A stretch of 64,000 nucleotides of DNA from Candidatus Asgardarchaeum abyssi (GTDB taxonomy: Archaea; Asgardarchaeota; Asgardarchaeia; Asgardarchaeales; Asgardarchaeaceae). The stretch's first letter is position 1. Every line of letters starts with the position of its first letter. The notes below the pieces were generated by a model. It did not search any database. It was given only the letters and a program-made list of their open reading frames with translations, and was not told where the DNA came from. The DNA lies in NCBI GenBank assembly GCA_040225955.1, contig JBECUL010000003.1, forward strand, positions 11,952 through 75,951, read 5' to 3'. Made by a program: the position numbers and the translations under genes. Of this stretch, positions 914-22,030 are shown piece by piece.

Positions 914-999
914 ATTATCACACCATTATAATTTTACATTTATTTCCTTACGCAAGACTTTTAATTTTTTGTCCACCACCATTTTGGGGAGAAAGTCTG

Positions 1000-1241
1000 C
1001 CTTCCGAAACAGTTAAATGTTTTATGAGCATTTGTGAGTATTGAGGTAGTGTCTGAATGTGGTGGGAGTAAAGCACCGAAAGGACACCGCAATGTGAAAG
1101 GACGCCGCGATGTGGGCTTGTGGGGTTACCCTGAACGGGGTCGAGACCGATGACTTGCTCCCTATGAACCCAGAGGGAGCTGAGGCTGATGTGGCCCAGG
1201 GTGGATGTTCGCTCACCAATGCGGACATTCACTGAACCCCC
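1000..1241 (+). mobile_element. Non-autonomous mini-element, probably IS607/IS200-IS605 (TnpB)-derived, copy 1
   Basis: ~242 bp, GC-richer than flanks, ~91% identical to 33222-33463 with unrelated flanks. Both copies follow TGCC and end GAACCCCC. Retains TnpB-like remnants (C-x-CGGSKAPKGHRNVK; RDVGLWGYPERG). Confidence 0.7.
1109..1241 (+). ncRNA. Putative omega-RNA-like structured RNA scaffold (copy 1); 5' boundary uncertain
   Basis: Hairpins 1157-1163/1174-1180 and 1201-1212/1221-1232 (with G-U pairs) are preserved in copy 2. Position at the element right end matches TnpB omega-RNAs. Confidence 0.45.
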
Positions 1242-1445: not shown

Positions 1446-1922
1446 TTACTTATCTACTTTCTTTTCCTCTTCCTTCTCTGGTATGTTTTTTGGCTTAGTG
1501 CTACTAGACAATTTATCTAATGCTTTTATTACTCCATCGATGATAGCTTGTGGTCTAGGTGGGCAACCTGGAATATAAATGTCTACTGGGATTATTTTGT
1601 CTAGAGGTCCTGCAAATCCATAATCTTCTCCAAATATACCACCAGAGACTGCACAAGAACCAACCGCAATAACGCAAACAGGCTTAGGTGTCATCTCATA
1701 AATTCGTTTTAGTCGTTCCTTTATCGCAGTAGTTACTGGCCCAGTTACTATTAATATATCAGCATGCCTTGGGCTACCTTTCTGAATAATGCCAAAACGT
1801 TCAACATCAAATCTAGGTGTCAATGCAGCTACGACCTCTATGTCGCACGCATTACAACCTCCAGCAGGTACGTGCATTATCCATGGTGACTTTTTTCTTG
1901 CCCATGAAATAATCTTACTCAT
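1446..1922 (-). CDS. Group 4 [NiFe]-hydrogenase small subunit (NuoB/HycG/HyfI-like)
   Basis: GGCNACDIE, SPRHAD, GSC, PGCPPRP motifs. Confidence 0.9.
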   Translation of the reverse strand: MSKIISWARKKSPWIMHVPAGGCNACDIEVVAALTPRFDVERFGIIQKGSPRHADILIVTGPVTTAIKERLKRIYEMTPKPVCVIAVGSCAVSGGIFGEDYGFAGPLDKIIPVDIYIPGCPPRPQAIIDGVIKALDKLSSSTKPKNIPEKEEEKKVDK

Positions 1923-1931
1923 ATTATCACC

Positions 1932-3386
1932 TCAAAATGAATTTAATCCTGAAACCGCTTCAACGACAATAGATAGAAATATTTCTGGAAAAGCACTCGC
2001 TACAGCAATAAGTAATAGTAAAATGGCGATAGGAATAGTCATCTCTTTGGGCAACTTCTTTATGTCATCCCCATTTGCCATCACTTTTGGTTCACCGAAG
2101 AATATCATATGTGCTGCTCTTACAAAATATCCAACCGCAATCAAGCTTGCCACTATTGCCAAAATGGTTACCCAAATATAACCTGCTTTAAATGAAGCGT
2201 CGTATATTAAAAACTTACTATAGAATCCATTCAAAGGTGGTACACCGCCCATTGAAAGACCAGCTACTAGGAATGTAGTTGCTAGCAGTGGCATTTTTTT
2301 AACCAAGCCACCCATTTTTTTCATGTCTCTAGTCCCGGTTGCAAAGAATAGGGCGCCACTGATGAGAAAGAGTGTGCTTTTAAGAAGACCATGATTGAAG
2401 ATATCAAAAACGGAACCATATAATCCAATTTGTGTAGCAATACTAATTCCAAGTATAATATACCCTATCTCATCTATGCATGAATATGAAAGAAGCCTTT
2501 TTATATCTGTCTGTACCAGAGCGAATAAGGCTCCGAGAATCATAGTTGCTGTGCCAATTACAATAACAATTAGATAAAGATCTTGTGTCAAAATAGGGCT
2601 GAATGCATCAAATGTTCTTATTAGCGCAATAGCAGCGGTTTCTGTCATGATACCACCAAGAATTGCACTAATTGGAGCTGGGGCCTCAGAATATGCGTCA
2701 GGGAGCCATGTATAGAAGGGTATAATACCCGCTTTAGCTCCAAATCCGAAGAATACAGAGAGAAAGATTATTTTTATTGCCATGACATTTGTAATTGTAT
2801 TCTTATTGGCTTGCAGAAAAGAGTAGATATCATTATATGAGAATGAAGTTATGTTTAAAGTTACCATATAGGTAAGAGCTATAATTATCATTGCAGTTCC
2901 AAAACTGCAAATTATAAGGTACTTTAAACTCGCTTCAAAAGCCTCACTTGTATTCTCATGAGCTACTAGGAGTACGGAAAATATGGTTGCACCTTCTATG
3001 TATAAGTAAGTACTCAGAATATCTGCGGACATTACAGTACCTATCATTGCAAAAATGAACAAAGAATACCAGAAGTAGTATTTTTGTACCCTTTGGAGTT
3101 CTCCTTTTATAACTGGAATCGAGAAGTATGCAGCTGTTGTGGACAAAATTAAAATCAATACTGTAATAAAACTACCTAATGTATCAATGTACAAATTAAA
3201 CCAATATGTGGGATGAACTATCTTACTGTTTAACTGATATAATAGAATCAAAGAGAACACTAAAGCCCCAAGGTTCAGCAATGTTATGACTTTCCCTATA
3301 TATTCCGCCTTTTTTATGAATATTGAAGCGGCACACCCCATTAGCAGTAGTATAAAAATTGCTATAATAAATAACTCTGTCACCAC
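1932..3386 (-). CDS. Antiporter-like membrane subunit (HyfF/NuoN/MrpD-like)
   Basis: Multi-TM; KAGIIPFYTWLPDAYSEAP, DIKRLLSYS, GVPPLNGFYSK. Confidence 0.9.
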   Translation of the reverse strand: MVTELFIIAIFILLLMGCAASIFIKKAEYIGKVITLLNLGALVFSLILLYQLNSKIVHPTYWFNLYIDTLGSFITVLILILSTTAAYFSIPVIKGELQRVQKYYFWYSLFIFAMIGTVMSADILSTYLYIEGATIFSVLLVAHENTSEAFEASLKYLIICSFGTAMIIIALTYMVTLNITSFSYNDIYSFLQANKNTITNVMAIKIIFLSVFFGFGAKAGIIPFYTWLPDAYSEAPAPISAILGGIMTETAAIALIRTFDAFSPILTQDLYLIVIVIGTATMILGALFALVQTDIKRLLSYSCIDEIGYIILGISIATQIGLYGSVFDIFNHGLLKSTLFLISGALFFATGTRDMKKMGGLVKKMPLLATTFLVAGLSMGGVPPLNGFYSKFLIYDASFKAGYIWVTILAIVASLIAVGYFVRAAHMIFFGEPKVMANGDDIKKLPKEMTIPIAILLLLIAVASAFPEIFLSIVVEAVSGLNSF

Positions 3387-4003
3387 CTCAACCTCCTTAA
3401 GCTCCAGCTATCTATCGTACCAGTTTTTTGATACGTGTTTATCGCTAGGTAAAGTATAGTAACAACGATTCCAAGAAGTAAGCCATCTATGACCGTTAGT
3501 GCTAAAATCATCAAAAGTTCTGGCGCCTCATACTGGAGAGCATATAGAGAGAAAAACACATGTAGTGCACTATCGTATATTGTATATCCAATGGCCATTT
3601 TAATTAAATTGCCTTTAAGTATGAGTGCATAAGTTCCAACACCAGCCAATGCCAATGCTATTGAAAGTTTCCAATCAACTACTGGAACTGCGAATAGCAA
3701 AACTGTTACTAAACCAACGGCGAATACTAGAGCTATCACTACTGTAGCAGTACTGAAATACTTTTCTTTCTCTTTAAAATCGATCTTTTGCGCTACCTTA
3801 ATTATAAGCAAAGGTATTACAATGCCAACAACGATAAGATTTAATATACTTCCTATAATCTCACCCTCTAGTATTGTTAACAATGTTGTTAAAATACCGT
3901 AAAGAGTAAGCGTAATTGCGACTCTTTTAAAGTGAGTAAGTTCCACAGTGACAGCTGCCACAACAACAGTTATATAAATTAGAGCAAGAGTTATCTCACT
4001 CAT
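3380..4003 (-). CDS. Small membrane subunit of the hydrogenase complex (HyfE-like position)
   Basis: About 6-7 hydrophobic segments; overlaps both neighbours in the operon. Confidence 0.6.
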   Translation of the reverse strand: MSEITLALIYITVVVAAVTVELTHFKRVAITLTLYGILTTLLTILEGEIIGSILNLIVVGIVIPLLIIKVAQKIDFKEKEKYFSTATVVIALVFAVGLVTVLLFAVPVVDWKLSIALALAGVGTYALILKGNLIKMAIGYTIYDSALHVFFSLYALQYEAPELLMILALTVIDGLLLGIVVTILYLAINTYQKTGTIDSWSLRRLRW

Positions 4004-4547
4004 TGAGCATCATCCTCACTAAAATTTTTCGTCCAAGTGAAATATTCTCAACCTTTCCTCTGCAATCTGGGCACAACTCTAATTGCTTTCGTATTTCGTC
4101 TTCACTAATTTTGTGTTCTTTTAGAAGTTGTTGCATCCTTTCAAGTCCGCGATTGAACTGGGCAACAGTCATGAATGGCCTTCCGCAATTTCTGCATTTT
4201 AAAAGATCAAACTTAATTTCTATTACTTCTTCTTGAGTTGTAGAAGATGCAAGTTCGTACTCCTGAGTTAGGTGTATTCCATCTTCAGGACAAATTTCTT
4301 CACATCTTGCACAGAAAGTGCATTTCCCATAGAATAATGAAATTATTCTAACATCATCCTTATCTTCTAAACTCAATGCTCCAGATGGACATAATTGCAC
4401 ACATGCACCGCATCCGATACACTTTGATGGATCAAACTCTGGTTTCCCTCTGAATTTCTCTGGTGGTGGTGTTTTCTCAAAAGGATATTTCACCGTTGCA
4501 GGAGCTTTAAGAGCCTTAAAAACTTCAGTAATTATTTTCTTCTTCAT
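3996..4547 (-). CDS. Fe-S subunit (NuoI/HycF/HyfH-like)
   Basis: TVKYPFE, two CxxCxxCxxxCP motifs plus extra CxxC..CxxC. Confidence 0.9.
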   Translation of the reverse strand: MKKKIITEVFKALKAPATVKYPFEKTPPPEKFRGKPEFDPSKCIGCGACVQLCPSGALSLEDKDDVRIISLFYGKCTFCARCEEICPEDGIHLTQEYELASSTTQEEVIEIKFDLLKCRNCGRPFMTVAQFNRGLERMQQLLKEHKISEDEIRKQLELCPDCRGKVENISLGRKILVRMMLNE

Positions 4548-5548
4548 TATATCACCCCTAATGCAAAAAGTGTCTCACCAACAAATCCAATAATTGCTAA
4601 GGGCAATATGTATTTGAAGTAAAACTTGTATCCCTGGTCTATACGGTAGCGTGGATTAATTGTTTCAAGAAGTGTAAGTAGAAAAACAACTAGAGCACAT
4701 TTAATTAGGAATGTTATGATTGTTAGGTCTCCACCAAAGAACAATATAACTGTAAGTGCTGGAATGATAAACCACTTAAAAACATTGGCTAGTTCAAAGA
4801 TACCAAGAAGGCAACCTGAATACTCTGTTAATGGACCTGCAACTATTTCACACTCCGCCTCTGGCATATCAAAAGGTTTAATTCGCAATTTGGGAAGGAC
4901 GCATATTATAAAGACTGCAAATGTAATGAAGTGAAACACTGGAGCAAGAAAACCAAATGAGGAATTACTAGGAATCTCTAGAATGAAAGGACCATTAGAT
5001 ATTTGATATGTGAAAATGTCACTTAATCTTAAGCTCGAGACATGAAAAGCAACTGCTATCGAGGCTAAAGCAAAGGGTAATTCATAAGCTATGACAAGGT
5101 TAACTTTTCTGCTAGAGCCTATTGCAGCGTATGGTGATGGTGTACTAAAACCAGCTAGTATTTCTGCAGCCTCAATCATGGCCAGAAGGTATATTATAAG
5201 GATTAAGTCTCCATAAAATGATAATGTGAATATAGAAACCGATGGTAGGATAGATACTGGAATTGGTAACAGCCATAGAACAACTAATGCGCTGGATAGA
5301 GCCATTATAGGTGCAAATACAAAGATGAATTTATTTGCCATCGCTGGAATTATTGTTTCCTTTGCAAATAACTTAATTAGATCAGCAAATGTCTGGTACC
5401 AGGGGGGTCCTACACGTGATTGAAATCTAGCTCGTAGTTTTCTGAACTCCCACCAGAATAATGAGCCCACAATAAAAGCAAAAAGGATTCCTGGGTAGAT
5501 GAGAATACTTAATAAAAGTTCTAATGTTATTTGTATAACCATCTGCAT
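4547..5548 (-). CDS. Membrane subunit (NuoH/HycD/HyfC-like)
   Basis: ARFQSRVGPP, PFDMPEAECEIVAGPLTEYSG, PRYRIDQ. Confidence 0.92.
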   Translation of the reverse strand: MQMVIQITLELLLSILIYPGILFAFIVGSLFWWEFRKLRARFQSRVGPPWYQTFADLIKLFAKETIIPAMANKFIFVFAPIMALSSALVVLWLLPIPVSILPSVSIFTLSFYGDLILIIYLLAMIEAAEILAGFSTPSPYAAIGSSRKVNLVIAYELPFALASIAVAFHVSSLRLSDIFTYQISNGPFILEIPSNSSFGFLAPVFHFITFAVFIICVLPKLRIKPFDMPEAECEIVAGPLTEYSGCLLGIFELANVFKWFIIPALTVILFFGGDLTIITFLIKCALVVFLLTLLETINPRYRIDQGYKFYFKYILPLAIIGFVGETLFALGVI

Positions 5549-6735
5549 TATCTCCTCTTCCTCCTAAACATTTGTTCGAGTTTTTCAAATGTTACTACAT
5601 ACTCTTTGTTCTTTCTGCTATCAATAACTATAACCCTGTCTGTACATGAAAAACATGGGTCGACGCTCGCTAAGATTATAGGCACATCTGCTAATGTTTC
5701 GTCAATAAGCATCGGTTTTACAGAGGGTATATTCATATAGCTTGGTGTTCTTACTTTAACTCTTTCTGGTATATTTGTTCCGTTGGACTTTATGAAGTAG
5801 AAAAGCTCTCCTCTAGGGGCTTCACAGCGGCTCATAGCAATTCCTTCTGGAAATTCTTCAATCTCGACAGAAATAGGCCCCTCAGGAAGATCTTTAAGCG
5901 CTTGACGTATTATTTTCACAGACTCTACCATTTCATCATACCTAACTAGTACTCTTGCAAGAACATCACATGAGTCATAAACTGAGATTGACCATTCTAT
6001 TTTGTCGTAGGCGTCATATGGATCATCTTTTCTTACATCTATCGCAATGGACGAGGCTCTTGCTGTAGGACCTACCACACAGTATTTTTTCGCAGTATTT
6101 TTGTCAAGAATGCCTATTTCCTTCACACGCGCAAAAATCAATGGGTCACTCGTAAGTTCTTGTAATAATACTTTCAATGCTTTTTCTAAAGAGTCTAATT
6201 TCTCATTAATCCCTCTTGCTAAAGCAGGTGATAAGTCCCTTCGTACACCACCAAACTTGTTATATCCATAATTTACCCTATTTCCAGTTAGCATTTCGAG
6301 AATATCTTGTACAATTTCTCTATCACGCCATACATGCATGAACAATGTATCAAAGCCTATAATATGAAGCCCTACACCAAACCATAGCAAGTGGCTATGG
6401 AGTCTCTCAAGCTCAAGCATGATTGTTCTTAGATATTTCGCACGCTCAGGTATCTCAATTCCAACAAGTTCCTCGACAGTTTGACAAAATGTATTTGTGT
6501 GCACACCACTACATATACCGCACACACGTTCAAATAAGAATATATCTCTCCAATAAGTTCTACTCATTGCTATTTTTTCAATTCCTCTATGAGTATATCC
6601 TACTTTTATATCAGCATCTATGATTCTTTCACCTTCTACTTCGAGCTTAAAGTACTCTGCTTCTTTCAGTGCTGGGTGATAAGGACCAATTGGTACAATA
6701 AAAGAATGATTTTTACTCACTTTTACTACCCCCAA
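5548..6735 (-). CDS. Group 4 [NiFe]-hydrogenase large subunit
   Basis: GPYHP, GYTHRGIEK, L1 ERVCGIC and L2 DPCFSCTDR both intact, followed by a short C-terminal extension. Confidence 0.92.
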   Translation of the reverse strand: MGVVKVSKNHSFIVPIGPYHPALKEAEYFKLEVEGERIIDADIKVGYTHRGIEKIAMSRTYWRDIFLFERVCGICSGVHTNTFCQTVEELVGIEIPERAKYLRTIMLELERLHSHLLWFGVGLHIIGFDTLFMHVWRDREIVQDILEMLTGNRVNYGYNKFGGVRRDLSPALARGINEKLDSLEKALKVLLQELTSDPLIFARVKEIGILDKNTAKKYCVVGPTARASSIAIDVRKDDPYDAYDKIEWSISVYDSCDVLARVLVRYDEMVESVKIIRQALKDLPEGPISVEIEEFPEGIAMSRCEAPRGELFYFIKSNGTNIPERVKVRTPSYMNIPSVKPMLIDETLADVPIILASVDPCFSCTDRVIVIDSRKNKEYVVTFEKLEQMFRRKRR

Positions 6736-7603
6736 TAATTTCTAAAAGAGCATCCGCTTTTACTCTATGCATTTTTAACAATTCACCAACATTGGGAAAA
6801 TCAAAGGCCATTGCAAGAAGTTCCATTAGATGTATTACCGGAATACCAAACTCCTCGCCAAACATTTTTTCTATCGTTTTTTGTTCGAAGTCTAATTGGT
6901 AATAACATGCAGGGCAGGTTACTACTATACAATCCGCTCCGCTCTCCTTGATCATTTTGAATTTTTGATAAGTCAAATTCTTTAATGCAAAATTATAATC
7001 ATATTGTGATAGCGGATAGCCGCAACACATTCTTTCAGAACCATATGTTACTATTGTTGCGCCAGTGGCTTTCACCACCTCATCAAAATATCCTGGCAAT
7101 TTCCATATGTTATCAGGATCCCCAGATGTAAACAAGTGGCATCCATAGTGCATTGCAACTTTTAGGTTATTCAATGGCTTTTTAACATGCTTTTTTATTT
7201 CTTCGATGCCTATATCATTTACAAGTACCTCTAAAAAGTTTAAGACATGCGTCGTTCCTTGATATTCACGCCCAATGCTTTTTAGTCTTTCATTAATTTT
7301 CTGTTTAAGCTCAGGAGAATGCTCTAATTCAAGTTCTGTATCATGTAGGGTTTCATAACATCCATTACATATAGCCATCAAATTTTGCTTTTTCTCTTCT
7401 GCTATAGATAAGTTTCGTGCGGCTAGTGTTAGCCAGAGATCCCAATCTGCAACTTTAGATATAACTGGCTCTGGACAGCAAGAGAATCCCTCCGCATCAT
7501 TAATTTTGACTCCTAATTCCTCAAAGACTTTTCGAGATGCAACTTCAATGTTTAAAAACCTAGTAGATATCAGACATCCCCAGAAAACTATATACTCCGT
7601 CAT
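6713..7603 (-). CDS. hdrB: Heterodisulfide reductase subunit B-like CCG-domain protein
   Basis: WGC, FSCCP, LAARNL, CNGC, HYGCH, CCG, CPAC: two CCG domains. Confidence 0.88.
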   Translation of the reverse strand: MTEYIVFWGCLISTRFLNIEVASRKVFEELGVKINDAEGFSCCPEPVISKVADWDLWLTLAARNLSIAEEKKQNLMAICNGCYETLHDTELELEHSPELKQKINERLKSIGREYQGTTHVLNFLEVLVNDIGIEEIKKHVKKPLNNLKVAMHYGCHLFTSGDPDNIWKLPGYFDEVVKATGATIVTYGSERMCCGYPLSQYDYNFALKNLTYQKFKMIKESGADCIVVTCPACYYQLDFEQKTIEKMFGEEFGIPVIHLMELLAMAFDFPNVGELLKMHRVKADALLEIIGGSKSE

Positions 7604-8265
7604 TTGTACCTAAGCCCTCCTTTCTTCCAATCAAATCCAACTTTTTTATCGTACCCAACTTTTTTGATCAATTCATGAATCTCTTTTACAGATTCCTCCT
7701 TTAATGAGGCCACTGGCAGTTCTGGTGGAAGATTCATGCGTTCTCTTCTTCTTATAGTTGAGCTCGTAAATGGTATTGGCTGTCCTGTCATAATTAGTTC
7801 ACTTACTACCTTTCGATGGGGCTTTGGAACGATTCCTTCCATAGGCTTTCTAAGTGGATATTTCCCTTCAGGCCACTCATAAGGTAGAATGATTCTTCTA
7901 AAGTCTGGATGTCCATTAAATTTCAACCCGAAAAGATCATGAATCTCACGTTCGATCCAGTTTGCACCAGGTAAAATCGATGCTAATGAATCGATTTCAT
8001 TAACGTCTTTTGGGACACGCGTTCTTAAACTTATAATACTTTTATTAGCCTCAAAGTGATACAGTAATTCAAAATCTAGCCCATCGTCCACACAAGATAT
8101 TGTTATTAACCGGATGTCCTTTTCCACTAGCAATTTTGCTGCCTTTATAATCGCTGATCTTTCTATGTCAATAATATATTTTTGTTCTTTAATTTTCTGT
8201 AAGCCTGAGATATAATCGCCAAGCTCTTGTTTAAGAATCTCTATCACATCATCAGCCAACAACAT
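7600..8265 (-). CDS. NuoC/MbhK-like (30-kDa) subunit with C-terminal extension
   Basis: ANWIEREIHDLFGLKFNGHPD...WP...PLRK. Confidence 0.88.
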   Translation of the reverse strand: MLLADDVIEILKQELGDYISGLQKIKEQKYIIDIERSAIIKAAKLLVEKDIRLITISCVDDGLDFELLYHFEANKSIISLRTRVPKDVNEIDSLASILPGANWIEREIHDLFGLKFNGHPDFRRIILPYEWPEGKYPLRKPMEGIVPKPHRKVVSELIMTGQPIPFTSSTIRRRERMNLPPELPVASLKEESVKEIHELIKKVGYDKKVGFDWKKGGLRYK

Positions 8266-8272
8266 TCACCTC

Positions 8273-10222
8273 CTAAATCATCAGTAAGTATATTAATATC
8301 ATAACAATCGCTGCGATGGCAATGTACACGTTTAGATATCCTATTTGTATTCTTCTAAGCTTGTTACTGAACCAAATAAGCGCTCTACCTATACCAAACC
8401 ATAATCTATCAAGGCCTCCTTTTTCCATGACCTTATATAAGCGACCAAAGAGAATCTTCGGAGAGAAGAAGAAAGCACTAGGATCAGGGCGTGTTTTTTC
8501 CATGGATAAGTAAGGTTCATCTACTTCTCCACCAGTAAAGATACCGAATTTTCCTTCTGTCTCAGTGAAATGTCTAATGGTACCAAGTCTATAAGCAATA
8601 AATCCTAATAGCAAGGAGAATGTCAAGAGTATAACTATTAACGCTGCATAGTATCCACCAACCGCACTAGCGACATATCCCAATGTAGATACAGTAAGAG
8701 TACCCCCAGCTAATGTTATTGCAGCTGGAATGATCAAGTAATTCAATGGGATATATGGTGCAATACCAAAAATGATACAAATGAGTGCTAAGACTACCAT
8801 TGTTACTTGCATAGGTATGGGCACTTCTTTTACATTTTCCAACTTCGTAGGTCTTGATCCAAAGAATGCAGAAAATATAAACTTCATGACTCCTGCAAAG
8901 GTCATAGCACTGGCAAATATTGCAAAGATGCCATAGAATAAGTAAAGCCCTCCAATAGCTCCACCCATTGCTAAGCCAACACTTATTGCGGCCTCGTATA
9001 TCATGAATTTACTAACAAAACCATTTAATGGAGGTATTCCTGATATAGCTAAGGCTCCTATAATACATGAAGCTGCCGTTACGGGCATATTTCTAGCCAA
9101 TCCACCCATTTTTCGCAGATCTTTAGTCTTAGTTGCATATATTAGGCAACCTGCTCCTAGGAATAATAGGCCTTTTATGAATACGTGATTAAAGAGATGG
9201 AAAAGCCCAGCAGCAATACCAAGAGTAGTTCCTATCCCGATAGCAAAAAACATATAGCCAATTTGAGTGATCGTTGAGTATGCTAGGAGCCTTTTTACAT
9301 CATTCTGAGCAATCATTGCAAATGAAGCAACAGCCATTGTTATGATACCAACAGTTGAAACAATAATGTTCCATTGTATCGTTATTGGGTATAGTAAATA
9401 TACTCGCGCAATTAAATAAACACCAGCTTTTACCATTGCCGCTGCGTCCAATAGAGCTGTTAGTGGAGAGGGTGCCACTGTGGCATCTGGCAGCCAAGTG
9501 TGTATTGGAAACTGAACAGATTTAGCCATAGCTGCAACTAAATATAAGGCCAATATTATATTTAATGCAACTTGAGCGTCTTCTGGAAGTTGCGAAATTG
9601 CTGTAGGTATCTCTGAGTAAACTGTAGTTCCGGTGAGAAAGAAAGTCCATATAGCACCAATAAGTAATCCAACACCTCCAGCATGTGTCAACATAATTGC
9701 CTTAAAGGAACCATGTAAGCTTTCAGGCTTTTTATAATAAAATCCAATTAGGCTGTAGGAGCATATTCCAACGATTTCCCAGAAAATGAACAGTAGTATT
9801 AGATCACCTGCAAATGCAAGTCCTATCATAGAACCGATAAATGTCAACATTAGGAAATAAAACCTAGGAATTCCCTCTTCATGAGCCATATCTGCTGTTG
9901 AATAAAGTAAATCAAAGGCTCCAAAGAATGAAGCTGCGATGCCTATAATTAAACTCAAAGCATCTACATAGAATGTGAAGCTGGTTCCTATCAATTTAGG
10001 AGCTACTAGAGGGATTATACTTGTTGACAATGTAGCTATAATTACTCTATTGTTGAGTATAACCTCTGGTATTAAGAGAAAAACAATTCCTGCACTTATA
10101 AATACAAGTATAGTAGAATACCAACCAACTAACTTCTTTGAAAATTTCCCAATCAATGGCGTGAGAAATGCACCCAACATAGGTATTCCAACAGCCAAGT
10201 ATACTAGTAATCCATAATCCAC
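8273..10222 (-). CDS. Large antiporter-like subunit (NuoL/HyfB/MrpA-like)
   Basis: FIFWEIVGICSYSLIGF, AKSVQFPIHTWLPDA, GIPPLNGFVSK. Confidence 0.92.
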   Translation of the reverse strand: MDYGLLVYLAVGIPMLGAFLTPLIGKFSKKLVGWYSTILVFISAGIVFLLIPEVILNNRVIIATLSTSIIPLVAPKLIGTSFTFYVDALSLIIGIAASFFGAFDLLYSTADMAHEEGIPRFYFLMLTFIGSMIGLAFAGDLILLFIFWEIVGICSYSLIGFYYKKPESLHGSFKAIMLTHAGGVGLLIGAIWTFFLTGTTVYSEIPTAISQLPEDAQVALNIILALYLVAAMAKSVQFPIHTWLPDATVAPSPLTALLDAAAMVKAGVYLIARVYLLYPITIQWNIIVSTVGIITMAVASFAMIAQNDVKRLLAYSTITQIGYMFFAIGIGTTLGIAAGLFHLFNHVFIKGLLFLGAGCLIYATKTKDLRKMGGLARNMPVTAASCIIGALAISGIPPLNGFVSKFMIYEAAISVGLAMGGAIGGLYLFYGIFAIFASAMTFAGVMKFIFSAFFGSRPTKLENVKEVPIPMQVTMVVLALICIIFGIAPYIPLNYLIIPAAITLAGGTLTVSTLGYVASAVGGYYAALIVILLTFSLLLGFIAYRLGTIRHFTETEGKFGIFTGGEVDEPYLSMEKTRPDPSAFFFSPKILFGRLYKVMEKGGLDRLWFGIGRALIWFSNKLRRIQIGYLNVYIAIAAIVMILIYLLMI

Positions 10223-10224
10223 AT

Positions 10225-10707
10225 TTATCCCTCCGCCACAACCTTATATGCGATTGCTAATTGTTTCTTTGCTTGTTCTCTCGGTACCAACTGTAATGCA
10301 TAAGTCGGGCAAAACTTTACACATTCTGGGTCGCCATCGCAAAGATTACACTTTTCCGATATTCTAGCATTAACGTCAAACCATGGTACAGAAAGTGGAC
10401 ACATCATGTTGCAGAGGCGACATCCTATACACTTAGCAGGTTGAATTCTCACGATCCCAGTATTTTCATCCTTCACTATAGCATCTACTGGACATACTGC
10501 CATACAAATTGGGTCGTCACAGTGGTGACAATATATGGCTTCAAACCTTAGAGTTTTTAGATCAAAATATATACGAATATTCGACTTGGATAGATCTACA
10601 ACTCCAAAGTGCTTATGAGAGCAAGCTATCATGCAGAAACGGCAACTTACACATCTATCCGAATCATGAACAAGAACCATTTGCTCTGTTTCATTCGTCA
10701 TTTGCAA
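10225..10707 (-). CDS. 4x[4Fe-4S] electron-transfer subunit (HyfA/HycB/AOR-associated ferredoxin-like)
   Basis: CVSCRFCMIAC, CHHCDDPICMAVCP, CIGCRLCNMMCP, KCNLCDGDPECVKFCP. Confidence 0.9.
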   Translation of the reverse strand: MQMTNETEQMVLVHDSDRCVSCRFCMIACSHKHFGVVDLSKSNIRIYFDLKTLRFEAIYCHHCDDPICMAVCPVDAIVKDENTGIVRIQPAKCIGCRLCNMMCPLSVPWFDVNARISEKCNLCDGDPECVKFCPTYALQLVPREQAKKQLAIAYKVVAEG

Positions 10708-11008
10708 TCTCGCTCGCTATTATTTTTTGACAAGGTTTGATTATTTTTCGTTGATAGAGATTATATAACTTTTTATTAAAAAGTCTAAAAAGAGTCGATG
10801 AATATTTTTCTAATTATTGGCACTTTCCAAAAAAAATAAATTGTTTTAACATCTTCTACAATATTTTTTATTTATTTTCTACAGATTTAGTTTAAAACAA
10901 GTTTCATTATTATTGCCATTACTAAAAGATAAATATGGATATTATTGTAAATATCCTCAATAATACTGTCGTTAAACATAAAAAAAGCATAAAAAAATTG
11001 TTAATTTA

Positions 11009-12373
11009 TCACTTAAACTGAAGTCCTAGCTCTTCTAGTTCTTTTTTTACCTCCAAATAGAGCTTATAGTGTTCTTCCTTCGGTTCTAAGGTATCTAAGT
11101 TATAAAGCTCCTCAAACGGTTTTCCAACGGGAGCTACTTCAAAATCTAACTTATCTTTGTACTTGTTATAAAGTTCTAAAACTATTTCATTGGCATCTTC
11201 TCTTTTGAGTTTAGCTGCAGCATGGGCTATTTCTCCAAACAGTCTTGCCATCAGTGGACTGTTATGATTATCATATTTTAGATCGGCAGGTCTTGGTCCC
11301 GCAACATGACTTCCGCTTGGAACAACGGCTATTTCCAGAGCAGCAAATTCATAAGCATACTGTTTTGATCCAGGTCTCCCAGAAGTTGTATGACTCGTAA
11401 GGTTAATTAATTTAGTATTTCTAGCTATAGCTTGTTTCACTCGACTGGCCATCCAGAGCGAGTGAATATTCGTCTGCGATTTATACTTTATATGTTGAGG
11501 CCCCATATGGAGTATTTCTGCGCCTAACATGAGCTCAGCAATATGTGTAGCCACACCAACTATAGCTGTACCTTCAGGGCCTCCTCCATAACCTCCTACT
11601 AATGGGGTTGCTGCAATGTAAATTGGATTCCCTCGATATTTATAGAAAGCTATTCTTCCAAGTCCAATATCATCAATTTGTAATTCCGAGATAATCATTA
11701 TTACAACTGGATCTGTTTTTCTTAAAAATCCCTCAAGAGCCATTGCAATATCATGCATAGCCATTTCTGCAAATGCAACTATTGGCATTCCAGGTCTTCC
11801 AGCTCTAGAAGTTGCTTCTCTTGCCCATTTTATGTATAGTAAAGCCTTGTATATTGCAAGCGCTGACTCGGGTCTTACATCTATTCCGTAGAGCGAACGA
11901 ATATATCCCGGCAGTTCTAGTAGATCGATTATTTCCTCTCTTGCATAAGCCTCGTTCATGAGAACAAATACTTTTTCAGATACATCACAGTTAAATGGGC
12001 CTCCAAAAATTATTGGTGGCTTCGTATCTTCAACACCACGAGGATATAGAACTCTTCTATTTTTTCCTTCACCTACTTCTAGTTTGTCTTTTGCATTTTT
12101 CAATGCATGCTTAACTTCACTCTCGTCAAAGATTATTCTTCTTCTCGTGTTTATACAATATATTCCTGTCTCCAAAAATAATCTGTATCCAAGTTCCCAG
12201 AGTTCATCAGCAACGCTATTATCAGTATTGACAGGTTCTTCTGGATTAAATTTGATGTCTGTTTCTTTTAATAATTCTCTTACTTTTGCAGCTAAAAGCC
12301 TGAGACTAAAATCTTCTGCACTCATCATAGGACCTGTTTCAGCTCTTTTAGCAATCTCAACAAAATTTACCAT
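11009..12373 (-). CDS. mtmB: Monomethylamine:corrinoid methyltransferase (MtmB) family protein, non-pyrrolysine, paralogue 1
   Basis: RAETGP, YCINTRRRI, AGRPGMP, GGYGGGPEG, GKPFEELY. No in-frame TAG. Confidence 0.85.
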   Translation of the reverse strand: MVNFVEIAKRAETGPMMSAEDFSLRLLAAKVRELLKETDIKFNPEEPVNTDNSVADELWELGYRLFLETGIYCINTRRRIIFDESEVKHALKNAKDKLEVGEGKNRRVLYPRGVEDTKPPIIFGGPFNCDVSEKVFVLMNEAYAREEIIDLLELPGYIRSLYGIDVRPESALAIYKALLYIKWAREATSRAGRPGMPIVAFAEMAMHDIAMALEGFLRKTDPVVIMIISELQIDDIGLGRIAFYKYRGNPIYIAATPLVGGYGGGPEGTAIVGVATHIAELMLGAEILHMGPQHIKYKSQTNIHSLWMASRVKQAIARNTKLINLTSHTTSGRPGSKQYAYEFAALEIAVVPSGSHVAGPRPADLKYDNHNSPLMARLFGEIAHAAAKLKREDANEIVLELYNKYKDKLDFEVAPVGKPFEELYNLDTLEPKEEHYKLYLEVKKELEELGLQFK

Positions 12374-12399
12374 CTTATCACCAACCTTACATTAATAAC

Positions 12400-14211
12400 T
12401 TATTCTTTATAACTCCAACCTCTAAGCTTGTAATATTCTCTAACAAACTCCTCAACATCTATAGTTTTCGGAATATCACACACATATCTTGGAACAACTT
12501 TAAATCTTAGAGGCAGTAATTCGTCCTCCTTAGAAATTCCAATCTTCTCATTAAATTCTCGTTTCAAACTAACAATCTTCTCTCCTATCTTTAACATATC
12601 TTCTAAAGATATTTCTATTCCAGTTACGGCCTCATAAAATTCTGGCACTAACGATGGTGGTGTTTGACCTGCCCATGATTCAAAGGCAAATAAACAGAAA
12701 ATCATAGACTCAACAACCTCTGTGAAGTCTTCAGTAATGACAACAGCCCTTGCAACATCATACGGTGTTGGATCTTCGATTTGCTCTATTCCAAGGTCGG
12801 GATTTCCATATATTAGAAATCCTGCGTCGGCACGGCTATGATCTGGGCCGTAGGGGCTAATTGCATATTTTAATCCCATCCCTATATACGTTCTTGGATC
12901 ATGCATTGGAATAGCATCATTCTTAACAACAATAAAGCTATCTTTTGATTCTGGACCTAAAGTTTCAATTATTTTTCTGGGTCCCTCTGCAATTATATTG
13001 CCGAAACCAATTCTTTTAGCAATCTTATCAATAACATCCAAAATTGCATCTCCGCATCCCCACTTTAAAGATATATCCTCTTTTTCTAAAAGGCCTTTTT
13101 CTTGCAGCTCTGTTAAAGCTGCTATTATCGATCCAGTAATAATGGTGTCCATACCATATCGGTTACATAGCTCATTAGCCTTTATGAGAGGCTCTACCTC
13201 GTTAATGAGGTTTAAACTGCCCAATGCAGCTAAACTTTCGTACTCAGGGCCTTTTTGTTTCTCAGCTTTAAACTTTCCTTCTTTAATTTCTACTATGACC
13301 TTGCATGCAACTGGGCAATTAAAACACGCCTTATGCTGAACAAAATAACCCTTATTCTTCATTGTAATAACACTAATATTTTGTGCATTTTTCACATCCC
13401 AATCATCTAAGAGCCAGTTCTTAAGAGGCAAATCCTTTTTTCTAAGTAGAAATGATAAATCTCCTCCAGTCCCACCTTCAGAGATGAATTTTATCCCTGG
13501 TTTCTCTTTTATAATTTTAAGTAATTGCTTATTGAGCTCTTTGACTTTATCTGGGTCATAAACTCTAACTTTATTAGTTCCGCGAACTACAATTGCCTTT
13601 AACTTTTTGGCACCCATAACAGCACCAAGACCTCGTCTACCAGCAGCGCATCCCATATCGTTTAGTATAGATGCGAATCTTACTAAATTTTCACCAGCTT
13701 GGCCGATAGTTAAAACTTTACTCTTCTCTCCATGAATCTTCTTTAGGTAAATCTCTGTTTCATAAGTATCTAGTCCCCATATTTCGCTCGCATCATTTAA
13801 TTCAATTTTATCATCAAATATAGATATATAAACTGGTTTTTCACTAGCCCCCTCAACGATTATTGCGTCGTAACCAGCAAATTTTAACTCTGCCCCCCAA
13901 AATCCTCCAGCGTCAGATTGTCCCCAAAATCCCGTCAGCGGGGATTTTGCAGAAATAATATGTCTTCCAGTCATAAATACCGACGTTCCAGTAAGAGGCC
14001 CTACTGCGAATACTAACTTGTTATTTGGAGATAGTGGATCTACCTTTGGATCAACTTCTGAGGTGATTATCTTTGTTGCAAAGCCAACTCCACCAAGAAA
14101 CTCTTTGATTATACCATTTTTCAAATCTTCAACTTTAATATCACCCGATGATAGATTTATCCTTAAGATTCTTCCGCAGTACCCATAATATTCAATCATT
14201 ATTAACACCAC
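12400..14211 (-). CDS. aor: Tungsten aldehyde:ferredoxin oxidoreductase family protein
   Basis: GRILRINLS, SAKSPLTG, AGRRGLGAVMGAKKLKAI, CFNCPVAC, GPEYE, DPR. Confidence 0.92.
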   Translation of the reverse strand: MVLIMIEYYGYCGRILRINLSSGDIKVEDLKNGIIKEFLGGVGFATKIITSEVDPKVDPLSPNNKLVFAVGPLTGTSVFMTGRHIISAKSPLTGFWGQSDAGGFWGAELKFAGYDAIIVEGASEKPVYISIFDDKIELNDASEIWGLDTYETEIYLKKIHGEKSKVLTIGQAGENLVRFASILNDMGCAAGRRGLGAVMGAKKLKAIVVRGTNKVRVYDPDKVKELNKQLLKIIKEKPGIKFISEGGTGGDLSFLLRKKDLPLKNWLLDDWDVKNAQNISVITMKNKGYFVQHKACFNCPVACKVIVEIKEGKFKAEKQKGPEYESLAALGSLNLINEVEPLIKANELCNRYGMDTIITGSIIAALTELQEKGLLEKEDISLKWGCGDAILDVIDKIAKRIGFGNIIAEGPRKIIETLGPESKDSFIVVKNDAIPMHDPRTYIGMGLKYAISPYGPDHSRADAGFLIYGNPDLGIEQIEDPTPYDVARAVVITEDFTEVVESMIFCLFAFESWAGQTPPSLVPEFYEAVTGIEISLEDMLKIGEKIVSLKREFNEKIGISKEDELLPLRFKVVPRYVCDIPKTIDVEEFVREYYKLRGWSYKE

Positions 14212-14241
14212 CGAGATTTATGCATAGATTTAAATGAATAT

Positions 14242-15249
14242 TCATTTCTTAAAAACAGGAATTACTTCATTGCCTATTAATTTCAAAGCCTTCTCTATAT
14301 CTTTGCCCAGAGGATATCCAAAGACTATATGCGTAACCCCTAAATCTACCATTCTCCTTATCTTCTTAATAATCTCCTCTGGTGTTCCAGTCAATGAAAA
14401 ATCGTTTATTATATCGTCTGTTATAAGGTTAGTTGCTTGCTCGCTTTTTCCCTCGTCCATGAGTTTGTATATTTTAATAATTACATCTGTCTCATGTCCT
14501 GCTTCCTTTAAAATTTCCATGGGCTCTCTGTAAATAACTGCAGGCATGTGCGGCTTAACAAATTCTTTTGCCTCATCAGAATCTTCAGATATTGAGCTAT
14601 ACATCCAATTTGCAATAGAAAAGTTCGAAGGATCACGTCCCGCTTTTTTAAGTCCTCTCATCACATACTTTTTTGAGCAATCAATCATTTTCTCAGAACA
14701 GGATCCAAAGATCACACCATCGGCAATTTTCCCACTAAGTGTTAACATCTGAGGCCTTCTTGCACCAATAAATATAGGCACGTTAACTGGCTCATCTTTG
14801 AATTGCAGATTGCAAACTCTAAAATTATAACTCTCCATACTTAGTTTTTCTCCACGTAAAAGTTTTCTAATCGCAATTACTGCATCTCTAACAGTAGCTA
14901 TTGGCTTATTCCACATCTCATAACACAACGGAGGAAGAGCGGATCCACCACCAGCTCCTATACCAAGTATAACGCGACCGTTAGAAATAGAATATAATGT
15001 TCTAATAGTTCTTGCTATCATAGCGGGATGTCTTGTATAGGGGTTGCAGATTGATGGCCCAACAATAACTTTTTTTGTTGCAAGAGCTATTGCTGCAAGT
15101 GTAATGAAGGTATCATTACAATCATAACTAGGATTCAAATCAGGAAGCCATACATAGTCAAAACCTAATTTTTCAGCCTCAACAGACCACTTAACTATAT
15201 CCTCTATAGGGAAATGTGTATATGGACTGAATACAAATTTCACGCTCAT
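14242..15249 (-). CDS. LLM-class (Mer-like) F420-dependent oxidoreductase
   Basis: GFDYVWLPD, CNPYTRHPA, GRVILGIGAG, PIFIGA, ADGVI, LTGTPEE. Confidence 0.85.
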   Translation of the reverse strand: MSVKFVFSPYTHFPIEDIVKWSVEAEKLGFDYVWLPDLNPSYDCNDTFITLAAIALATKKVIVGPSICNPYTRHPAMIARTIRTLYSISNGRVILGIGAGGGSALPPLCYEMWNKPIATVRDAVIAIRKLLRGEKLSMESYNFRVCNLQFKDEPVNVPIFIGARRPQMLTLSGKIADGVIFGSCSEKMIDCSKKYVMRGLKKAGRDPSNFSIANWMYSSISEDSDEAKEFVKPHMPAVIYREPMEILKEAGHETDVIIKIYKLMDEGKSEQATNLITDDIINDFSLTGTPEEIIKKIRRMVDLGVTHIVFGYPLGKDIEKALKLIGNEVIPVFKK

Positions 15250-15306
15250 GTTAAATTCCTCGAATATATTTTTATATATTTTATATACATTATAACTTAT
15301 TTATTT

Positions 15307-15323
15307 TCCAATTTAAAATTGGA
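15307..15323. promoter_or_regulatory. Perfect inverted repeat TCCAATTT-A-AAATTGGA upstream of the LLM gene; candidate TF operator
   Basis: 8-bp arms with a 1-nt spacer, ~60 bp upstream of the start at 15249. Confidence 0.35.
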
Positions 15324-15436
15324 CTTATCTCAACGTTCTTATCTTCTTATGAACGTTATCTTTTTGATCTTTCAAAAATTGATGTAATAAAAGCCACAAA
15401 GTTTACTGTAATATAAAAGAAAAAAGAAAATGATAG

Positions 15437-16801
15437 CTAAAGCTCTAGTCCTAATTCCTCTAATTCTCTTTTCACTTCTTCATATTCTTTCAAATGTTCT
15501 GGCTTTGGTTGTAAGGTGTCTAAATCGTAAAGTTCTTCAAATGGTTTCCCAACTGGAGACACTTGAAAATCTAACTTATCTTTATACTTCTTATAAAGCT
15601 CTAAAACAATTTCATTAGCGGTTTCAAGTTTTATTTTTGCTGCTGCGTGAGCTATTTCACCAAATAACCTTGCCATTAATGGGCTATTGTGGTTATCATA
15701 TTTTAAGTCAGCAGGTCGTGGTCCGGAAACATGACTTCCAGCAGTGACTACAGCTATTTCTAGGGCAGCAAACTCGTAAGCGAATTGCTTTGATCCTGGT
15801 CGCCCAGCAGTAGTATGACTAGTAGTATGAATCATTTTTGAATTTTTACTAACTGCTTGTTTTGCTCTACTTGCGACCCATAATGAGTGAATGTTCGTTT
15901 GCGACTTATATTTTATATGTTGCGGCCCCAAATGTATAATATCCCCATTAAGCATTACAGCTGCTATATGTTCTGCAACAGATACTATTGCTACGGTAAC
16001 TGGATCTCCAGCGAATCCACCCACTAATGGTGTAAACGCTATGTATATGGGTGGTCCAGTAGCGATATAGTATCCCAACCTAACTAGGGAAACATCGTCT
16101 ATTTTTAACTCAGGTAACATAACTATCGCTCTTGGATCAGTCTTTCTTAATCCCCACTCCTCATTGCTTGCCCCAATTTCATGCATTCCCATTAGGGCAT
16201 GGGCAACTACTGGCATCCCCGGTCTTCCAGCTCTCGAAAGAGCTTCACGTGTCCACTTAGCATAAAGTATTACTGTCTGTGGGGATAATCCTGAATTGGG
16301 CCTTATTTCTAGGCCATACATTTTCTTTAAATAGCCAGGAAGAAAGAGGACGTCAATTATTTCTTCTCTTGCATATGCTTCGTTCATAGGAACAAACACT
16401 TCTTCTGTGACATCGCAGTTAAATGGTCCTCCAAAAATTATTGGTGGTGTACTATCTTCTATACCACGAGGGTAGAGAACTCTTCTATCTTTTCCTTCAC
16501 CAATTTCAAGTCTATCTCTTACATTTTTTAGTGCATGCTTGACTTCACTTTCTTCAAAAAGGATTAATCTACGAGTGTTAACACAATAGATACCTGTCTC
16601 TAAAAAGAATTTGAAACCTGCTTCCCATAAATCATCAGCAAGTGTTAAATCCGTATTGACTGGCTCATTTGGATCAAACGTAACATCCAATTCTTTTTTT
16701 ATTTCTCTTAGTTTCATTGCTATTTTTTTCATATCAAAATCTTCTTCTGCTATCATGGGGCCTGTTTCAGCGCGTCGAGCCACTTCAATAAAATTGACCA
16801 A
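15437..16801 (-). CDS. mtmB: MtmB-family methyltransferase, non-pyrrolysine, paralogue 2
   Basis: Same motifs and length (454 aa) as 11009..12373; AGRPGMPVVAH; no in-frame TAG. Confidence 0.85.
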   Translation of the reverse strand: MVNFIEVARRAETGPMIAEEDFDMKKIAMKLREIKKELDVTFDPNEPVNTDLTLADDLWEAGFKFFLETGIYCVNTRRLILFEESEVKHALKNVRDRLEIGEGKDRRVLYPRGIEDSTPPIIFGGPFNCDVTEEVFVPMNEAYAREEIIDVLFLPGYLKKMYGLEIRPNSGLSPQTVILYAKWTREALSRAGRPGMPVVAHALMGMHEIGASNEEWGLRKTDPRAIVMLPELKIDDVSLVRLGYYIATGPPIYIAFTPLVGGFAGDPVTVAIVSVAEHIAAVMLNGDIIHLGPQHIKYKSQTNIHSLWVASRAKQAVSKNSKMIHTTSHTTAGRPGSKQFAYEFAALEIAVVTAGSHVSGPRPADLKYDNHNSPLMARLFGEIAHAAAKIKLETANEIVLELYKKYKDKLDFQVSPVGKPFEELYDLDTLQPKPEHLKEYEEVKRELEELGLEL

Positions 16802-16804
16802 GTT

Positions 16805-17476
16805 TCAGCCCCCCTTCTTTTTCTTTTGTTCCATCAATCTTTCACAAAGTTTCACGGCCTCGATAGCATCTCTAGCATACCCATCTGCGCCTATTTCATC
16901 TGCCCACTTCTGAGAACATGGAGCACCTCCAACTATAACAAGATATTTATCTCTTTTTCCTTGACTTTTGAGATACTCTATGAGGTCTCTCTGTTTCATC
17001 ATTGTTGTGGTAAGCAGTGCTGATGTTGCAATTATATCCGCGTTTACTTCTTCAGCGGCTTGTAAAAATCTTGGTATTGGAACATCTTTTCCAAGGTCAT
17101 AAACATCGAATCCAGCTGATTGAAGCATAGCAATGACTATAGTTTTACCGATATCATGAATGTCGCCCTCAACAGTTCCTATTACAACTACGCCTTTCTT
17201 TTCTACTTTTTGTCCACGTCTTACTATCTCTTCTTTAAGAACATCGACAGCTGCTTTCATAGCATCAGCGCCCATTATTAACTCTGGCAGAAAAATTTCC
17301 ATTCTGTCAAATTTTTCGCCCAATTCTCTAATTGCAACCGCAAATCCTTTTTCAATAGCCTCAAGAGGGTCTATTCCAGCCTCAATAGCCTCCTTTGCTA
17401 GTTTTACTGCTAAATCCTTATCATAGTTATAAATTGCCTCTTGCATCTTCTTAAATAACTCTTCTTTATCCACCAT
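16805..17476 (-). CDS. Methyltransferase cognate corrinoid protein (MtmC/MttC-like)
   Basis: B12-binding motif GTVEGDIHDIGK, SALLTTTM, VGGAP. Confidence 0.95.
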   Translation of the reverse strand: MVDKEELFKKMQEAIYNYDKDLAVKLAKEAIEAGIDPLEAIEKGFAVAIRELGEKFDRMEIFLPELIMGADAMKAAVDVLKEEIVRRGQKVEKKGVVVIGTVEGDIHDIGKTIVIAMLQSAGFDVYDLGKDVPIPRFLQAAEEVNADIIATSALLTTTMMKQRDLIEYLKSQGKRDKYLVIVGGAPCSQKWADEIGADGYARDAIEAVKLCERLMEQKKKKGG

Positions 17477-17488
17477 AACTTTTTCCTC

Positions 17489-18499
17489 CTACCTACCAAA
17501 AAGTTTGAGAGTAACACCCAGTTTCTTTTCCTTTGCATTCTTATAAATAATATAACCAACTGCTACATCTTCACTACCCATTCCAATTGGAGCAAAAAAT
17601 ATACGCTCTTTTGGATTTTCTCTCCCTGGCTTTTTACCTATGACAATATCTCCAAGATTCGCGTATATATCCTCATCTTTTATTAGCCCCTCTTTATACA
17701 TTTTTGCTAATACCGGTGTACCTCTATGAAGCACGTGTTCCCATTCGTCAACTACTATTTTATCAGAGTGAAGAACCACCTCATACTCCTCTTCCTGATA
17801 TGAACCAACATGAGAAAAGAAGCTTCCTTCTTTTACCCACTTATCCTTCACTATTGGTTCATCAGCGACCGTTACTGTAATTATAATATCGGCTCCTACA
17901 ACTGCATCTTTAGGTGTATCCACTGGTATTATTTTTAATCCAGTTTTTTCGCTCATCTCTTCGCTGTACTTAATGGAAGCCTCTTTTCGAATATCGTAAA
18001 CTCTGACCTCTTTAAGATTTTTGAGAACCTCTAATAAAGCTAATAGTTGGGTTCTCGCTTGAACACCTGCTCCAATCATAGCAACTATTTCTGAATCGGG
18101 TCTTGCTAAATATTTTGCTCCAACCCCCGTTACTGCTCCGGTTCTCATAGCACTGATTAAAGTACAGTCCATAATCGCTAATGGAAAACCAGTTTCGGAA
18201 TCGTTAAGTATCAAAAGACCGGTTGCTCTGGGCATCCCATATTTTATTGGGTTCTTTGGAAAACCTGCAATCCATTTTATTCCACAAACATTGAATTTGC
18301 CACCAACGTATGCTGGCATTGCATTTATCCTGCCTCTCCTTTTCTCGTCTAGATCTAAGACTACTTTAGATGGCACTATTACTTTATTCTCCGCGTGGAG
18401 TCTAAAGACTTCTTCAACTGTTTCTACAACAAGTTTCATAGTTAACCCTGATTCTTCAACTTCTTTTTGGGTCAAATAAATAAATTCGATATCTTTCAT
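17489..18499 (-). CDS. Ornithine cyclodeaminase/mu-crystallin family (imine reductase/alanine dehydrogenase-like)
   Basis: AMPAY, GIKWI, SAMRTGA, IGAGVQA, GMGSEDVA. Confidence 0.9.
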   Translation of the reverse strand: MKDIEFIYLTQKEVEESGLTMKLVVETVEEVFRLHAENKVIVPSKVVLDLDEKRRGRINAMPAYVGGKFNVCGIKWIAGFPKNPIKYGMPRATGLLILNDSETGFPLAIMDCTLISAMRTGAVTGVGAKYLARPDSEIVAMIGAGVQARTQLLALLEVLKNLKEVRVYDIRKEASIKYSEEMSEKTGLKIIPVDTPKDAVVGADIIITVTVADEPIVKDKWVKEGSFFSHVGSYQEEEYEVVLHSDKIVVDEWEHVLHRGTPVLAKMYKEGLIKDEDIYANLGDIVIGKKPGRENPKERIFFAPIGMGSEDVAVGYIIYKNAKEKKLGVTLKLFGR

Positions 18500-21949: not shown

Positions 21950-22030
21950 TAAATAATTAATAATATCTACATCAGCAAGCAGATTAAACTTAAATATCAA
22001 GAATAATAAGATGAAAAATAATGCCTACTG

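Follow-up and report, generated by a model that had tools for sequence, protein, structure and literature searches.

An operon of ten genes from the archaeon Candidatus Asgardarchaeum abyssi encodes a group 4 [NiFe]-hydrogenase in which hdrB, the gene for an HdrB-type subunit, lies between the genes for the NuoC-like and large subunits. We found that this NuoC-like subunit ends in an arm that matches the C-terminus of HdrC, and that, in relatives from Asgard archaea and Bathyarchaeia, the arm and hdrB are strictly associated and hdrB keeps its position. Together, this association and this conserved position support, as the best reading of the sequence, an ion-translocating complex that has one site for H2 and another for a disulfide. 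We consider it likely that the gene products form one membrane complex, of the Ehd-like or Asgard group 4l/4q kind, with HdrB as a true peripheral subunit. The DNA analyzed (64,000 nucleotides, hereafter the window) comes from contig C3, part of a 2.64-Mb metagenome-assembled genome (MAG) that is 93.5% complete and 7.8% contaminated.

An hdrB gene within a complete group 4 hydrogenase operon

The operon consists of ten minus-strand open reading frames (ORFs), running from position 10707 to 1446 and all overlapping or abutting (Table 1). The original prediction, made from the letters of the window, had named these ten genes, described both nickel-binding CxxC motifs of the large subunit as intact and placed hdrB in overlap with both of its neighbors. 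ORF coordinates together with Pfam and NCBIfam assignments bore out all three statements: the large subunit has complete N-terminal (RVCGICSGVH) and C-terminal (DPCFSCTDR) motifs, and hdrB overlaps the NuoC gene by 4 nt and the large-subunit gene by 8-23 nt, depending on the start. The large subunit also bears a 28-residue C-terminal tail of the type cut by a maturation protease, and the NuoB-like small subunit retains the four cysteines for one [4Fe-4S] cluster. With the NuoI-like and NuoH-like subunits and the antiporter-like membrane subunits, the group 4 set is complete. HdrB itself contains two complete CCG motifs of five cysteines each (ten in total), which are predicted to form two non-cubane [4Fe-4S] sites.

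The NuoC-like subunit carries an HdrC-related arm

The NuoC-like protein exceeds the usual length by about 80 residues, and the extension contains no cysteine. It matches positions 78-143 of the TIGR03290 HdrC model (E 4.5e-6), and its profile matches HdrC in solved complexes (8RVU_c 113-184, E 1.6e-8; 5ODC_C 108-183, E 4e-7), corresponding to the last ~75 residues of that protein. As judged from these profile matches, the extension is homologous to the HdrC C-terminus. The arm has been kept between Asgard and Bathyarchaeia NuoC copies, and the paralogous NuoC genes on two other contigs of the same genome, C2 (142 aa) and C21 (184 aa), are without it. The original prediction had noted neither hdrC nor hdrA in the window; a stand-alone hdrC is indeed lacking, but the tail of an HdrC is present, fused to NuoC.

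In a profile search of 1.84 billion representative proteins, about 16 clusters (50% identity) covered the arm, and a clear score gap separated the arm-bearing NuoC clusters from thousands of arm-less NuoC proteins. Arm-bearing NuoC proteins are a small, distinct family. When 400 Asgard species genomes were searched with the arm only, most matches were ordinary HdrC, and the fusion was present in two genomes, the one studied here (G000) and G004. We did not find an explicit description of a NuoC-HdrC fusion in the searchable literature. The closest named homologue of the NuoC-like protein is from 'Candidatus Asgardarchaeia archaeon' (76%) and that of HdrB from 'Odinarchaeota archaeon' (74%), with Baldrarchaeum yapensis also among the closest named homologues (47-61%).

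Arm-like sequences also occur outside NuoC. Stand-alone mini-arm ORFs of 91-129 aa were seen in about nine Asgard genomes (G006, G107, G108, G297, G298, G300, G301, G303 and G397). At a Hodarchaeota locus (L005:1426-1716) the arm is a separate 96-aa gene directly before hdrB, within a hydrogenase cluster that encodes a NuoC-D fusion as its large subunit.

The arm and hdrB occur together in relatives

A scan of genomes and metagenomes with an alignment of arm-bearing NuoC yielded 85 usable loci. Arm-bearing NuoC was encoded in 13 of these, from Asgard archaea and Bathyarchaeia, and hdrB followed by the large-subunit gene came next in each of the 11 that had downstream DNA. Among the approximately 60 loci with arm-less NuoC, hdrB was present in none. 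A position of hdrB that varied among relatives had been named beforehand as an outcome that would speak against the original prediction; the position is conserved in all 11. Recurrence of the gene order in both Asgard and Bathyarchaeia loci argues that it is not due to chance.

The extent of conservation differs among these loci. A Baldrarchaeum-like contig (L011) has the identical ten genes in identical order, and a metagenome contig (L010) carries a relative that is 76-89% identical, with matching order. Bathyarchaeia loci keep a core of ferredoxin, NuoC with arm, HdrB, large subunit, NuoH, NuoI and NuoB, without the antiporter-like subunits. The ferredoxin gene precedes that for arm-bearing NuoC in all related loci. 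A metagenome variant (L017:2629-6883) encodes ferredoxin, NuoC with arm, HdrB, large subunit, NuoI and NuoB, with no NuoH or antiporter genes in the cluster, and is possibly a membrane-less form.

In a quick IQ-TREE phylogeny of 63 large subunits, the 11 HdrB-linked ones, including those of Bathyarchaeia, fell on one side of a branch with moderate support (SH-aLRT 86). HdrB linkage required one change on this tree, and none of 500 label shuffles gave a value as low, in a sample that was chosen by NuoC similarity and whose members are not independent as kin. The tree was built without named references from Methanomethylicia, Culexarchaeia or Methanocella.

Other Hdr and hydrogenase genes of the host

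The genome search for hdrA and hdrC that had been proposed with the original prediction found both outside the window. Contig C14 encodes an HdrA-MvhD fusion, HdrC and HdrB, then FrhB and glutamate-synthase-like genes, and contig C85 encodes MvhD-MvhG-MvhA, a HycI-like protease, HdrC and HdrB. Because canonical hdrC-hdrB pairs thus have HdrA/Mvh partners of their own elsewhere, the operon HdrB is not simply a stray subunit. McrA and ComA were not found in the 93.5%-complete MAG, which fits the expectation of a likely non-methanogen. With regard to candidate disulfide carriers, DsrC was not found in the genome, and GcvH is present on other contigs only.

Four group-4-type large subunits are encoded in the genome (contigs C1, C2, C3 and C21), and the C3 cluster is the only one with a NuoC arm and HdrB. 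The other three clusters are complex-I-like. The one on C1 (77297-89212) has several antiporter-like genes and a large subunit that is a NuoC-D fusion, the one on C2 (89718-99307) has a large subunit without the N-terminal CxxC motif, and the one on C21 (11110-20214) has three NuoL-like genes.

A proposed two-site membrane complex

We propose a complex-I-like, ion-translocating [NiFe]-hydrogenase made up of large and small subunits, NuoH, NuoI and a membrane arm of NuoL-, NuoN- and HyfE-like subunits. Its NuoC-like subunit would have gained the C-terminal, cysteine-free part of HdrC as an arm that most likely clasps HdrB. If formate hydrogenlyase is a guide, the four-cluster ferredoxin would sit on the NuoI-like subunit and lengthen the Fe-S wire, which would then comprise the NuoB cluster, two NuoI clusters and the four clusters of the HycB-like ferredoxin. 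Such a wire could connect the [NiFe] site, an entry point for external ferredoxin and the two non-cubane clusters of HdrB, which, tethered via NuoC, would draw electrons from it. The net reaction would most likely be the reduction of a disulfide by H2 or reduced ferredoxin, coupled to ion export by the NuoH/NuoL/NuoN/HyfE arm. The substrate is probably a disulfide other than CoM-S-S-CoB, since MCR and ComA were not found in the genome. An ion-pumping complex with H2 and disulfide sites had been part of the original prediction; its gene content and intact motifs stand, now joined by the arm-hdrB association, while docking, electron path, reaction direction, substrate and ion pumping are matters that we infer.

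Several observations weigh against this proposal. The HdrB score for TIGR03288 (270 bits) lies under the 345-bit equivalog cut-off. The Fe-S domain of HdrC is absent from the operon, which holds only the cysteine-free arm, and the HdrC residues with a reported role in completing the canonical active site (Y81, E94 and K98; PMC13518236) belong to a region upstream of the retained part and are hence missing. Loss of this domain and these residues leaves the final electron step to HdrB without an assigned route, and the missing residues, together with the score under the cut-off, make the substrate uncertain. No gene for a thiol/disulfide carrier lies beside the operon. We also modeled a pseudo-fusion with AlphaFold2, using a Baldrarchaeum locus (L001:10001-11566) in which TGA was read as W, so that NuoC continued through a five-residue linker into in-frame HdrB. 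In this monomer, with its artificial linker and six paired alignment rows, the NuoC and HdrB domains were predicted confidently and the arm had a predicted local distance difference test (pLDDT) score of 29-60, below the 52-76 that it reached in NuoC alone, a result that speaks neither for nor against docking. Moreover, oxidation of H2 at the [NiFe]/NuoH coupling site might consume the gradient rather than drive ion export, and all members of the HdrB-linked kind are known as predictions.

The most serious alternative, although we regard it as unlikely, is a complex that mainly oxidizes ferredoxin, evolves H2 and pumps ions in the manner of Mbh or formate hydrogenlyase (FHL), with HdrB as a side outlet or inlet serving as a redox valve or regulator. 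The large subunit is nearest to HycE (7Z0S_E, 296 bits) and MbhL (6CFW_L, 263 bits) among solved structures, the HycB-like ferredoxin also heads many arm-less group 4 clusters, two nearby AOR genes would supply reduced ferredoxin, and Kohtz et al. name the H2-evolving direction as an alternative (PMC9723716). However, three other group-4-type clusters in the genome are already available for that job, and a conserved ten-cysteine HdrB that has its own docking arm is much to maintain for a side function.

We give little credence to a second alternative, in which the CCG subunit, like SdhE/TfrB-type CCG proteins, acts on a non-disulfide substrate such as a quinone-like compound or another small acceptor. 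It draws on the low TIGR03288 score, on the membrane-anchor CCG protein SdhE being the second-best family (148 bits), on MCR and ComA not having been found, and on the loss of the HdrC residues that aid CoM binding. Yet the protein scores 214-244 bits against HdrB chains of 5ODC, 8RVU and relatives, the value for 8RVU_b (244 bits) being ~100 bits above SdhE-type models, and it retains the histidine beside the first cysteine of its second CCG motif.

Even less credible is that the four-cluster ferredoxin docks a neighboring tungsten AOR, giving an aldehyde-driven hydrogenlyase or disulfide reductase comparable to formate hydrogenlyase. The ferredoxin is a four-cluster connector subunit of the HycB/AorA/WOR5-S family, and its best solved relatives are Fe-S subunits from AOR complexes (8C0Z_C, 6X6U_B), with HycB3 (7QV7) and HycB (7Z0S_B) ranking below them; an AOR gene lies 1.7 kb upstream. 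Nevertheless, AOR flanks the operon in none of 12 related loci, and in the window a 300-bp promoter-like gap and an MtmB-like gene lie between the two. That HdrB is co-transcribed with the hydrogenase yet partners soluble HdrA/HdrC encoded elsewhere seems hardly tenable: AlphaFold2 did not dock the arm and both partners exist in the genome, but the two other hdrC genes already adjoin hdrB genes of their own, the reading frame of hdrB overlaps those of the core hydrogenase genes on either side, and the arm-hdrB association is strict across phyla.

If the predictions made for the two-site complex are true, it would conserve energy from H2-dependent disulfide reduction without cytochromes or quinones, and would link the Hdr chemistry of methanogens to complex I ancestry. 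No prokaryotes are more closely related to eukaryotes than Asgard archaea, whose bioenergetics therefore matters to models of eukaryogenesis. The locus provides an intact and clean example, with all ten genes, from an Asgard class that is sparsely sampled, and its HdrC-derived arm, strictly tied to hdrB, is sequence-level evidence for HdrB attachment. It opens no new question, because its kind has already been predicted in print. A broader scenario, which we offer tentatively and think unlikely, is that this MCR-less archaeon uses the HdrB-hydrogenase and the soluble MvhADG-HdrABC together to run a CoM/CoB-independent thiol/disulfide loop. In that loop the disulfide would serve flavin-based bifurcation at the soluble complex, and its H2- or ferredoxin-driven reduction at the membrane complex would build an ion gradient. 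This would amount to a 'disulfide respiration' that either was retained from methanogen energy metabolism or is ancestral to it, with the NuoC-HdrC arm as a device that recruits a new peripheral module to complex-I-like enzymes.

Other features of the operon and its neighborhood

The ferredoxin, the first gene of the operon, probably starts at the ATG at 10701. A TATA-like sequence, TTATATAA, lies ~60 nt upstream of the operon start, in the intergenic gap that we presume to be the promoter. The NuoL-like subunit aligns to NF005141 over residues 6-647 of 649 (model positions 4-608 of 615), and the NuoI/HycF-like subunit has an additional C-terminal CxxC...CxxC. Just downstream of the operon, a 94-aa ORF (948-1232, minus strand) without a Pfam match and with an unusual amino-acid composition may not be a gene.

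Table 1. Features of the hydrogenase operon, with positions in the window
Feature	Positions	Strand	Basis
Four-cluster [4Fe-4S] ferredoxin (HycB/HydN/AorA-like), 160 aa	10225..10707	-	Pfam Fer4_11 and others; four CxxCxxC...CP motifs
NuoL/MrpA-like antiporter subunit, full length, 649 aa	8273..10222	-	PF00361; NF005141 NuoL
NuoC-like (30 kDa) subunit with C-terminal extension, 221 aa	7600..8265	-	PF00329 at residues 33-142
HdrC-derived cysteine-free C-terminal arm of the NuoC-like protein	7600..7839	-	Residues ~143-221; TIGR03290
HdrB-type subunit, 296 aa	6713..7603	-	PF02754 twice
[NiFe]-hydrogenase large subunit, group 4 type, 395 aa	5548..6735	-	PF00346 and PF00374; L1 and L2 motifs
NuoH-like membrane subunit	4547..5548	-	PF00146, E 2.3e-72
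NuoI/HycF-like 2x[4Fe-4S] subunit	3996..4547	-	NF009053 (FHL Fe-S subunit), E 1.1e-42
HyfE/NuoK-like small membrane subunit	3380..4003	-	PF00420; NF008556 hydrogenase 4 membrane subunit
NuoN/MrpD/HyfB-like antiporter subunit	1932..3386	-	PF00361, E 4.1e-63; matches hydrogenase 4 subunits B and F
NuoB-like hydrogenase small subunit (proximal [4Fe-4S])	1446..1922	-	PF01058; NF005012 above cut-off
AT-rich 300-bp intergenic region upstream of the operon	10708..11008	-	Sequence

Upstream, positions 11009-23899 hold a methyl-transfer and aldehyde-oxidation island in this non-methanogen, with genes for two MtmB-like proteins, one MttB-like protein, a corrinoid protein, an ornithine cyclodeaminase-like protein, RACo, two luciferase/Mer-like proteins and two tungsten-type AORs. 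The hydrogenase complex had been predicted to be fed by these adjacent genes. In 12 related loci, no homologue of the AOR, MtmB, MttB or luciferase-like neighbors flanks the operon, so that a dedicated functional link is not supported; reduced ferredoxin derived from AOR could feed any ferredoxin-dependent complex.

The MttB-like gene contains a match to Rfam PYLIS_3, the mttB pyrrolysine insertion sequence (53.7 bits, 18888-18987, minus strand). None of the MtmB-like and MttB-like genes has an in-frame TAG, and PylD was not found in the genome. We rejected the match as a recoding signal because the MttB-like ORF is uninterrupted and PylD was not found; it looks like conserved coding sequence of a non-pyrrolysine MttB. 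Elsewhere in the window, a 2075-aa ORF occupies 27022-33249 (plus strand), and a 215-aa protein encoded at 39279-39926 (plus strand) has a weak match to Arf-family small GTPases (E 9.4e-6), which are common in Asgard genomes.

Comparison with known systems

The arrangement is less unusual than the original prediction had implied. 'Modular HdrB-interacting [NiFe] hydrogenases' were reviewed by Kohtz et al. 2022 and include Ehd in Methanomethylicia (named by Borrel et al. 2019), Ehe in Culexarchaeia, Ehg in Nezhaarchaeia, Drh in Methanocellales (Lyu & Lu 2015) and 'Ehd-like' clusters in Bathyarchaeia; according to these authors, HdrB-interacting complexes may be common in non-methanogens (PMC9723716). 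For Ehd, Ehd-like, Ehe, Drh and Ehg complexes, H2 is proposed to be coupled to disulfide reduction with ion translocation (PMC9723716), and Ehg is expressed in a cultured Methanonezhaarchaeia strain, a methanogen (PMC12700198). In the same lineages as ours, a preprint describes Asgard groups 4l/4q 'with a peripheral heterodisulfide reductase domain', naming Asgardarchaeia and Baldrarchaeia (Appler et al. 2024, bioRxiv 10.1101/2024.07.04.601786). Genomic and AlphaFold2-multimer predictions of the same architecture are in print (PMC9723716; bioRxiv 10.1101/2024.07.04.601786), and the operon is one more member of a kind that had already been published for this lineage.

The likeness to groups 4l/4q, whose hosts are Asgardarchaeia, Baldr-, Hermod- or Odinarchaeia, lies in the host lineage and in a peripheral Hdr module on an Mbh/FHL-like membrane hydrogenase, both of which we found here. 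The NuoC-HdrC arm as an attachment device is not mentioned in the available part of that preprint. With Ehd, Ehd-like, Ehe, Drh and Ehg clusters the operon shares an hdrB gene co-located with a group 4 hydrogenase and an antiporter-like subunit, and with the Bathyarchaeia 'Ehd-like' loci it shares the core of ferredoxin, NuoC with arm, HdrB and large subunit. Unlike those Bathyarchaeia loci, it has two antiporter-like subunits and HyfE. It differs from the Ehd kind in its non-methanogenic Asgard host, and of the co-encoded HdrC ('HdrBC') expected for that kind it holds the arm only. It also differs from Ehe in having no attached SdhA, CdhA or GcvH genes, and from Ehg in having no attached FdhA or HdrA genes.

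The HdrB is similar to that of the soluble MvhAGD-HdrABC (5ODC, 8RVU), to whose HdrC the arm is homologous, but the operon is without HdrA, and so without flavin-based bifurcation, and its hydrogenase is of the membrane-bound group 4 rather than the soluble group 3c. It further departs from a canonical CoB-CoM HdrABC in the sub-equivalog score of HdrB, in having no adjoining hdrA or full hdrC, and in that McrA and ComA were not found in the MAG. Among solved structures, E. coli FHL/Hyf (7Z0S) and P. furiosus MBH (6CFW) come nearest to the operon in large subunit, NuoC domain, NuoI-like subunit and HycB-like ferredoxin, and they follow the same modular plan without HdrB. HycE is a fusion of the NuoC and NuoD parts, whereas in the operon described here hdrB is inserted between the two.

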